The position numbers were made by a program, and so were the translations under genes. A DNA stretch of 34,955 bases from an uncultured bacterium (lineage in GTDB: Bacteria > Actinomycetota > Acidimicrobiia > Spongiisociales > UBA4744): NCBI GenBank assembly GCA_965549635.1, contig CBEVHI010000003.1:1-34955 (forward strand). The letters are read 5' to 3'. Under the pieces are notes generated by a model that worked only from the letters and a program-made list of their open reading frames with translations, was not told the origin of the DNA and made no database searches. This document shows positions 9,253 through 9,959 of this stretch, in pieces. The number at the start of each line of letters is the position of its first letter. Positions within the stretch are counted from its first letter, which is position 1.

Positions 9253-9959
9253 CTATGTAGCCCCCATGTCGCCATGGGGATAGGACCATATCTTCGCCTC
9301 AGCCGTCGAGCTGAGGGGGCTGGCGTATGGCCTCTGAGGATTCCAGAAATCGAGACCGCGCTTTGCGATGCATCGATTCGGTCAGCTTGGCGATGCGAGC
9401 CAGCCCCTCGAGTACGAGGTGCTCGCCGCGTTCCATCGACCGAACGATGTCTGCGAATGTGTTGAAATCCGCTCGCTTGTTGGTGATCAGTGGGTGTTCT
9501 TCGAAGAACGGGATGACGCGATCCACGAGGTCGGCGCGGCGCTTCACGGAGAAGCGCGCGAGCTTCGCTTTGTGGTTGTCATGCCGGGTACTCTCCATCA
9601 GCCTTCCGCATCCGAAGAACTCGAGGATGACCTCGAGCGCCTCGACAGATGTGGCTGCTTGCGTGACCGAGAACTCATGCTGGACTTGCCAGCCGAGTCT
9701 GCAGCCGCGGTTGCGAACCACGCTGATGGAGAAGCAGCCCTCGCCGTCGACGAAGCCGACGATCCACTGCTCGATTCCTGGCCTTTCCTGCTGATTGTCC
9801 GCACCGATCGGTTTGTCACTGTCCATGACCACAACCCTATGGTTTGGGTGTGACACGAACGAGTACCGTCGGATACACGGGGTTTCCAGCATATAGCCAG
9901 CTGCAACCCGCGATGTTGCCACCGCGGAGGGCAGTCACTCTTGCACGGAGAGTGGTTCT
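9253..9959 (-). mobile_element. Group I self-splicing intron (707 nt) at 23S position L1931
   Basis: Removing 9253-9959 restores GGTCCTAAGGT|AGCGAAATTCCTT. The 5' exon ends in U and the intron ends in G. Core elements: P AUAUGCUGGAAA, Q AAUCAGCAGG, R CCUCAGAGGCCAUA, S AAGAUAUGGUCC, P3 GCUGGC/GCCAGC. P2 and P9 carry GNRA loops. Confidence 0.95.
9299..9826 (-). CDS. Single-motif LAGLIDADG homing endonuclease encoded in the intron
   Basis: WIVGFVDGEGCFSI motif, FSVTQ, FFGCG, VIPFFEEHPL and K..DF..F patterns. ATG 9826 gives 175 aa; the frame stays open upstream to GTG 9922. Confidence 0.92.
   Translation of the reverse strand: MDSDKPIGADNQQERPGIEQWIVGFVDGEGCFSISVVRNRGCRLGWQVQHEFSVTQAATSVEALEVILEFFGCGRLMESTRHDNHKAKLARFSVKRRADLVDRVIPFFEEHPLITNKRADFNTFADIVRSMERGEHLVLEGLARIAKLTESMHRKARSRFLESSEAIRQPPQLDG

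Follow-up and report, generated by a model that had tools for sequence, protein, structure and literature searches.

Group I introns inserted after position 1931 of the 23S rRNA (site L1931, Escherichia coli numbering) have been described in bacteria and archaea. Bacterial L1931 introns carrying genes for single-motif LAGLIDADG proteins were reported in Thermotoga, Simkania and two Synechococcus strains, and the bacterial hosts of rRNA introns listed in Table 1 of the same 2007 paper were Thermotogae, Chlamydiae, Proteobacteria (Coxiella) and Cyanobacteria (Haugen et al. 2007, PMC1995217). In the Candidate Phyla Radiation (CPR), or Patescibacteria, a group I intron with a LAGLIDADG_1 gene was found at 23S position 1931; such introns were treated as a hallmark of the CPR that is elsewhere limited to a few species, and 16S introns outside the CPR were confined, in the literature consulted, to giant sulfur bacteria (Tsurumaki et al. 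2024, PMC11270868). Archaeal large-subunit (LSU) introns at position 1931 were assigned to subgroup IB4 (Nawrocki, Jones and Eddy 2018, PMC6125680), whereas the cyanobacterial L1931 introns were called 'very similar to IC1' (PMC1995217). Papers of 2024 and 2025 described bacterial rRNA introns as rare except in the CPR (PMC11270868; PMC12641178). Here we analysed the entire 35-kb contig CBEVHI010000003.1 (34,955 nucleotides (nt), called the window below) from the metagenome-assembled genome (MAG) GCA_965549635.1 of an uncultured bacterium of the class Acidimicrobiia. Its single 23S rRNA gene is interrupted by a 707-nt insertion, which is very probably a self-splicing group I intron of the L1931 lineage with a homing-endonuclease gene.

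The insertion was compared with the described systems. It occupies the same site as the bacterial L1931 introns, and its length of 707 nt compares with 654-700 nt in those introns. Both have one open reading frame (ORF) for a single-motif LAGLIDADG protein, of 175 amino acids (aa) here and 143-167 aa there. Both have a complex P5 region, and in both the ORF reaches into the core from a peripheral loop, a layout reported for cyanobacterial rRNA introns (PMC1995217). However, the cyanobacterial L1931 introns were described without P2 (PMC1995217), while the Acidimicrobiia intron has a well-supported P2 with a GNRA loop and an extended P1. This difference concerns the periphery and not the site or the core. 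The host also differs, being a mesophile-type, high-GC lineage of the Actinomycetota, and the likeness to the published bacterial introns is one of description. Archaeal L1931 introns share the site, and some are about 700 nt long and presumably carry an ORF, but they all come from metagenomic genomes of a different domain of life (PMC6125680). CPR hosts have several introns clustered at 1917-1952 and about 2593-2657 (PMC11270868), and the same clustering was observed in relatives of the window genome. The CPR copies in our collection (loci L050 and L053) showed about 60% intron identity and 32-50% protein identity to those of the window. An initial annotation of this DNA, made from the letters alone, had listed the known L1931 hosts but had left out the archaea (PMC6125680) and the CPR bacteria (PMC11270868).

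A complete rrn operon was located with Rfam on the minus strand of the window (16S, 13802..12273; 23S, 12076..8285; 5S, 8222..8106). The interrupted 23S gene is the sole copy assembled in the MAG, as the genome gave one 23S match. The bacterial LSU model bridged an unaligned block of about 710 nt between ...ACGGUCCUA and AGCGAAAUUCC. Mapping onto the annotated E. coli 23S gene (NZ_CP058748.1; locus L069, 872-3775) placed the final U of CCUAAGGU at position 1931, which lies in domain IV and is flanked by highly conserved exon stretches. The 19-nt core of the site is identical in the 23S genes of E. coli. The exons were collinear with E. coli 1599-1933 and 1932-2884 and contained no further large insertion, and a 16-nt stretch spanning E. 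coli 2590-2605 was uninterrupted at window positions 8580-8595. Sites L1917, L1951 and L2593 are therefore empty. In the P1 pairing, C26 and U27 of the intron are opposite G2 and A1, G28 forms a wobble pair with exon U1931, and C29 and C30 pair with G1930 and G1929. An exchange of AG/CU for AA/UU in P1 was visible in the alignment of related introns. The last base of the intron was G in 47 of the 48 aligned introns; the remaining one (L046) ended in A by the boundary used. The initial annotation had proposed an insertion of this length after U1931 that ends in G, the guide sequence CUGCCCU with a U.G pair at the 5' splice site, and three empty neighbouring sites. Direct reading and the mapping on E. 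coli 23S bore out each of these points.

Homologous introns were then used to examine the fold. Insertions were gathered from two sources, relatives of the window genome and those public species-representative genomes that the intron protein had matched. This gave 67 loci: 55 had an insertion between the same two exon motifs, 10 had no such pair (several were cut by contig ends) and 2 matched nothing but an upstream decoy motif. Duplicates (L013, L028, L029) and insertions of other types or lengths (L045, L050, L053, L055, L063) were left out, and the window intron and 47 others were aligned with MAFFT, the alignment being rough in the distal P1 extension. Across 87 pairs in 15 helices, 90.3% of 4032 cells were standard pairs, compared with 35.0-44.1% when the 3' partners were slid by 1-3 columns. 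Changes on both sides were found in 47 of the 87 pairs, and none of 500 shuffles matched the observed value on any of five covariation measures. The structure was derived from the same sequences and is thereby favoured over the slid controls, and related sequences can beat shuffles without structure. The fold is more strongly supported by the large number of independent pair types, with as many as five at a single pair. P4, P6 and P7 were nearly invariant and thus uninformative on covariation. P5a and P5b had compensatory changes in five of seven pairs, with 97.6% of cells paired. P3 is the long-range helix of the pseudoknot, and the full P7 helix (intron 628-634 / 670-676) is the presumed guanosine-binding helix. 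P2 and P9 hairpins with GNRA loops (GCAA and GCGA), the P3/P7 pseudoknot and the P/Q (P4) and R/S (P7) elements, which had been read from the single sequence at the outset, were all present. These results showed that a complete group I ribozyme core (P1-P9, with the P3/P7 pseudoknot) has been kept by compensatory evolution. In the loop of the P1 extension (about 9942-9948), a GUGC-containing sequence was kept in most of the 48 introns while the stem beneath covaried; this loop might make a tertiary contact or bind a protein.

The intron contains ORF P0001, a predicted homing-endonuclease gene. PF00961 (LAGLIDADG_1) matched one domain at residues 22-128 with an E-value of 1.9e-21 (77.3 bits against a cut-off of 23.1). 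Matches in the Protein Data Bank comprised 66 sequences over residues ~19-155, with E-values of 2.5e-40 to 3e-13. The best were domains of the I-OnuI family (2.5e-40 to 1e-24), such as 6uvw, 5esp (I-PanMI) and 4lox (I-SmaMI), and single-domain proteins were also matched (5gkk_A, 1.2e-30; 3e54_A, 3.3e-13). P0001 shares with the I-OnuI family the match over these residues and the ...GF(V/T)DGEG... motif. However, I-OnuI-family proteins are two-domain monomers of about 300 aa and P0001 has one domain, which suggests that P0001 would need to dimerise. The LAGLIDADG motif ...WIVGFVDGEGCF..., with its acidic residue, was conserved in the 30 intact homologues; VGFVDGEG was readable in all 30, the variants being one V-for-F and three T-for-V. 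The original proposal, an actinobacterial 23S gene interrupted by a group I intron whose LAGLIDADG gene is intact, was thus in agreement with the fold, the PF00961 match and a MAG of the same family labelled 'uncultured Acidimicrobiia bacterium' (locus L029, identical to L003). A genome of the same order likewise corresponds to a chromosome labelled 'Acidimicrobiia bacterium'.

The ORF shares nucleotides with the ribozyme. It corresponds to intron positions 134-661 and starts in the P5 domain. From there it runs through P5', P4' and P6 and along the 5' strand of P6a. The P6a loop holds the ORF body, after which the frame continues through P6a', P6', P7 and P3' and stops in the 3' strand of P8. 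In the ORF body of the 30 intact homologues, the per-position difference at codon positions 1, 2 and 3 was 0.282, 0.219 and 0.484. This third-position excess is a signature of protein-level purifying selection. In the 5' overlap with the core, the corresponding values were 0.189, 0.160 and 0.136. Third positions were the most constrained there, so the RNA is what is conserved in the overlap, and the N-terminal peptide ...GADNQQERP... is nearly invariant because the RNA core constrains it. The stop-free frame reaches an upstream GTG (9299-9922, minus strand, 207 aa), and the ATG at 9826 was taken as the start because it aligned with ATG or GTG starts in 46 of 48 homologues. An intact frame was defined by the aligned start codon and at least 160 open codons. 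By this measure 30 of the 48 introns were intact, and endonuclease decay is common within the intron family. Some of the frame failures among the rest may be indel errors in long-read assemblies.

We considered whether the insertion could be an assembly or binning artefact, in which the contig had been fused with an intron-bearing rRNA fragment from another organism, such as an organelle or a CPR bacterium. The MAG (2.48 Mb, 98.2% complete) is split into 421 contigs, and rRNA operons are often mis-assembled in metagenomes. However, the intron lies inside the 35-kb contig, in a 16S-23S-5S operon of uniform composition. A 765-nt contig of the DNA-type run X1 covered 9223-9987 across both junctions and differed at one position; because X1 is possibly the source sample, this contig is perhaps not independent. 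A 211-nt contig from a different study (DNA-type run X3) covered 9776-9986, across the 5' junction. The chimeric assembly named at the outset as a possible refutation was not borne out by these two contigs. In addition, the three genomes nearest in exon sequence (1.0-1.4% different, 98.6-99% identity) also have the most similar introns, inserted at the same site, the CPR introns at 1931 were far more distant, and chromosome-scale records labelled Acidimicrobiia or Acidimicrobiales (OY970227.1, OZ244213.1 and OZ244195.1) carry the intron family. No empty L1931 site was found in the same genome. An artefact of this kind is extremely improbable.

Public RNA data were examined for splicing. Contigs of the DNA-type runs X1 and X3 and of the metatranscriptomes X14 and X19 were compared over the whole 23S gene. 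In five bins wholly inside the intron, X14 gave no depth and X19 gave depth in two (20.2 and 2.42), against more than 1 million on flanking exon bins. Contigs skipping exactly 707 nt were found in all four runs (X1, 1; X3, 2; X14, 8; X19, 15). Since the joined junction occurred in the DNA runs too, and the exon flanks are common to the community, these contigs were uninformative on splicing in this organism. The exons might not be ligated at all: the insertion could stay in the mature 23S rRNA, or host RNases could excise it and leave the 23S fragmented, as with bacterial intervening sequences. The RNA contigs would allow this. The Simkania 23S group I intron is also reportedly unspliced, going by the title alone of a 1999 paper by Everett et al. 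('An unspliced group I intron in 23S rRNA...'). However, the core, the U.G pair and the terminal G were kept by compensatory change over 48 introns, which is hard to explain without selection for catalysis, and position 1931 lies between the conserved exon stretches of domain IV. RNase III-cut intervening sequences occupy other sites (PMC11270868). We regard a lack of ligation as very unlikely, and self-splicing of the intron was retained as the explanation.

The occurrence of the intron was surveyed in the class. Intron DNA was matched in 24 of 61 related genomes, including the window genome and one unpublished genome (G023). In an even sample of 401 Acidimicrobiia genomes from 178 genera, where a site was counted as occupied by the 3' junction pattern of the family, the intron was found at L1931 in 27 genomes from 22 genera. 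The site was uninterrupted in 166 genomes, and no genome had both forms, so that 27 of 193 readable sites (14%) were occupied. The remaining 208 genomes matched neither pattern and had no 23S assembled, other introns or variants. The order of the window genome had 17 occupied and 37 empty sites, and occupied and empty sites were mixed within families. The occupied genomes included single-contig ones without an empty site. Among 60 loci found through the intron protein, all were MAGs and none had a cultured host; their labels included Nitriliruptorales, Euzebyales and Egibacteraceae. Five loci with the intron family (L012, L049, L048, L051 and L068) were labelled Acidobacteriota, Burkholderiales or Alphaproteobacteria. 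These labels were rejected as evidence of host range: the flanking 23S exons were 82-91% identical to those of the window, as in Acidimicrobiia MAGs, and the labels or bins may be wrong.

In the literature searched, group I introns in rRNA genes were not described for Actinobacteria, Actinomycetota or Acidimicrobiia, although supplementary tables (such as Table S2/S3 of PMC11270868, on non-CPR RefSeq genomes) might list actinobacterial cases. The extension of the host range suggested by the initial annotation thus stood against the literature searched, but dozens of these introns are already in public MAG records, unremarked. The survey of L1931 occupancy that it had recommended gave the counts above.

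The history of the intron was examined through its divergence. In each of 1080 genome pairs, the introns were more divergent than the exons beside them, the lowest ratio being about 1.26. The median difference was 0.293 for introns and 0.158 for exons, and the rank correlation of the two distances was positive (0.42), with no weight placed on its P value since kin are not independent. These pairs gave no hint of a recent transfer between the hosts sampled. The guanine plus cytosine (GC) content was 59.5% in the intron, 57.6% in the exons and 64.1% in the rest of the window. These results suggested that the intron is old in Acidimicrobiia and inherited mainly vertically. The data fit long residence with cycles of decay and loss and argue against a recent organellar import. 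Long residence had been inferred at the start from the GC-rich sequence, and it agreed with a GC content near that of the exons, with the presence in 22 genera, with the divergence in all pairs and with ORF-decayed copies in a sister genus. In this sister genus (g3, same family; loci L005, L006 and L007), the L1931 intron was only 499-516 nt long in exons 98.6-99% identical to those of the window. The ORF body was deleted or broken, the ribozyme parts were kept, and the matched parts were 87-89% identical to the window intron. Next to an intact copy, these shortened ones resemble a stage of decay in the homing cycle.

These patterns would also be expected if the ribozyme were functional but the endonuclease no longer drove mobility. 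The protein might be a maturase, or its ORF might be open but en route to decay, and the intron would then be a purely vertical passenger. The higher divergence of introns than of exons in every pair, the broken or atypical frames in 18 of 48 relatives, the internal ORF deletions with a retained core in the sister genus and the single rrn copy are consistent with this, as is the maturase-like activity of the protein of the Thermotoga neapolitana 23S intron cited in a review (PMC3984707). However, the ORF of the window is full length with an intact acidic LAGLIDADG motif, and the third-position excess in its body is as expected for a protein under selection. The patchy spread, 27 occupied and 166 empty sites mixed within families, is as repeated gain and loss would give. 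An idle endonuclease was therefore considered unlikely, if far from negligible, and a mobile intron with an active endonuclease was preferred.

For such a mobile, self-splicing intron, the following course is proposed by analogy with the intron and protein families, which holds for splicing, endonuclease activity, dimerisation and a maturase role alike. The rrn operon would be transcribed and the intron would fold. Exon GGU1931 and intron A1G2 would pair with C26-C30 to form P1, and a free guanosine held in P7 would attack after U1931, at the U.G28 wobble. G707 would then occupy the guanosine site, and the freed 5' exon would attack after G707, which would rejoin the exons into a normal 23S rRNA. 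Removal of the intron would be needed because the sole assembled 23S copy is the interrupted one. The endonuclease, as a homodimer, would cut an intron-less 23S gene at the 1931 site, and repair would copy the intron in (homing); it may also aid RNA folding. The element would be old in this lineage and mostly vertical, with its ORF decaying in some branches.

Several observations weigh against this explanation. P1 holds just three exon base pairs, no convincing P10 was seen by eye when the 3' exon was compared with the bases that precede the guide sequence, and P5 of the window intron has one C.A mismatch. Rfam at its gathering threshold reported rRNA at the operon and no intron. The check with RF00028 that had been recommended gave a match in E-value mode (9262-9475, E 5e-4), but its 24.8 bits were below the cut-off of 50. 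The model aligned P8, J8/7 (GAAGAUAU), the 3' strand of P7 and P9 correctly in the 3' half, but wrongly forced P3-P6 into the end of the ORF in the misaligned 5' half. Only the 3' half was placed correctly, as the 415-nt ORF body in P6a is too long for the model to bridge. The cut-off is a rule of detection and no biological property, and an ORF-less intron at L1923 in a genome of the same order did exceed it (Table 1). The correctly aligned helices support the fold independently, and at this E-value the match, like that of PF00961, is more than chance. In addition, multi-copy rRNA genes can collapse in an assembly of 421 contigs, the spliced-looking junction in DNA and RNA runs alike can be supplied by intron-less community members, and one rrn copy leaves no homing target within the genome. 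The 18 introns that failed the frame test and the reported Simkania case count in the same direction.

Further introns were found in relatives. One genome of the same order (G033, locus L070) had four insertions in one 23S gene, all matching RF00028; the insertions other than that at L1923 had E-values of 1e-9 to 6e-5 (Table 1). Loci L071 and L072 each had three 23S insertions between 1917 and 1951. Another genome of this order (G056, locus L071, ~5643-6445, minus strand) had an insertion of about 805 nt close to the 3' end of the 16S gene, at a distance of 44 nt. It matched RF00028 (45.6 bits, E 5e-10) and contained an ORF of 217 aa. At its N-terminus (MGSENPPGADNQQ...), this ORF repeats the start of the L1931 protein that is constrained by the RNA. 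Elsewhere in the window, a flavin mononucleotide (FMN) riboswitch (RF00050, 28389-28506, minus strand, 108.5 bits) was found, which is unrelated to the intron.

Table 1. Features of the interrupted 23S rRNA gene and its intron (window positions), followed by the insertions in the 23S gene at locus L070 (positions at that locus)
Feature	Position	Strand	Remarks
23S rRNA gene	8285..12076	-	RF02541, 2757.4 bits; 3792 nt, 3085 nt without intron
Group I intron	9253..9959	-	707 nt, directly after E. coli 23S position 1931; terminal base G
5' exon end CCUAAGGU	9960..9967	-	E. coli 1924-1931; GGU pairs with guide sequence
3' exon start AGCGAAAUUCC	9242..9252	-	E. coli 1932-1942
Distal P1 extension (intron 6-11 / 19-24)	9936..9954	-	4/6 pairs with both-side changes; conserved GUGC-containing loop
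Internal guide sequence CUGCCCU (intron 26-32)	9928..9934	-	G28, C29, C30 and C31 invariant in 48/48 introns
P2 hairpin (intron 33-40 / 45-52), GCAA tetraloop	9908..9927	-	8 base pairs; both-side changes in 6/8 pairs
P3 5' strand (intron 59-64)	9896..9901	-	Pairs with 9319-9324; 99.7% of cells paired, 4/6 compensatory
P4 (intron 69-74 / 166-171) enclosing branched P5 domain (79-162)	9789..9891	-	P4 invariant
P5 domain			P5 79-82/159-162, P5a 88-91/153-156, P5b 92-94/149-151, P5c 106-110/141-145, P5d 111-114/123-126 (intron positions)
ORF P0001, 175-aa single-motif LAGLIDADG homing endonuclease (predicted)	9299..9826	-	PF00961
P6 and P6a 5' strands (intron 172-174, 179-190)	9770..9788	-	Pair with 9338-9354; 7/12 P6a pairs compensatory
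P6a and P6 3' strands (intron 606-617, 620-622)	9338..9354	-	Covariation test
P7 5' strand GGCCAUA (intron 628-634), J6/7 CAGA before	9326..9332	-	98.5% of cells paired
P3 3' strand (intron 636-641)	9319..9324	-	Covariation test
P8 hairpin (intron 644-650 / 657-663)	9297..9316	-	7/7 pairs compensatory; RF00028 finds P8 too
J8/7 GAAGA and P7 3' strand UAUGGUC (intron 664-676)	9284..9296	-	Fits RF00028 consensus GAAGAUAUAGUC
P9.0 (intron 678-680 / 704-706), P9 GCGA-loop hairpin (681-687 / 692-698), G707 (window 9253)	9253..9282	-	Compensatory: P9 6/7, P9.0 3/3
L070 insertion at L1923, 252 nt, ORF-less	2527-2778		RF00028 65.7 bits, above Rfam cut-off
L070 insertion at L1931, 793 nt	2787-3579		RF00028 31.1 bits
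L070 insertion at L1951, 266 nt	3600-3865		RF00028 45.6 bits
L070 insertion near E. coli 2605, 742 nt	~4519-5260		RF00028 29.8 bits

The L1931 intron itself is a known kind of mobile element, while rRNA introns in Acidimicrobiia are apparently undescribed, yet common. We lean, with some reserve, to the view that Acidimicrobiia, which are free-living, high-GC actinobacteria, rank with the CPR as a large bacterial reservoir of group I introns in rRNA, the second of its kind, in which the introns are ancient and mostly vertical and their ORFs double as core. This view drew on the occupation of about one seventh of the readable L1931 sites in the class and about one third in the order of the window genome. 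It also drew on relatives with three or four introns per 23S gene (at L1917/1923, L1931, L1951 and near 2605) and on a group I-like 16S insertion with a LAGLIDADG-type ORF in at least one relative. If it is true, the textbook rarity of rRNA introns outside the CPR and organelles would reflect annotation thresholds and culture bias, and rRNA-based surveys may under-count these lineages.

The host range of such introns is extended to a major phylum of soil and sea, since the only assembled 23S gene of a free-living actinobacterium holds a complete one and 27 of 193 readable sites in its class are occupied. A single family includes intact, ORF-decayed and empty sites, which form a large natural series for the cycle of invasion, decay and loss, and the same series shows a protein frame and a ribozyme core sharing nucleotides. 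Standard Rfam thresholds miss these introns, and long insertions of this kind can break rRNA-based binning, primers and length filters. The endonucleases, if active as their family suggests, would supply new single-domain meganucleases that target a universally conserved site. The main value of the intron is as an entry point to apparently undescribed, intron-rich actinobacterial rRNA genes.

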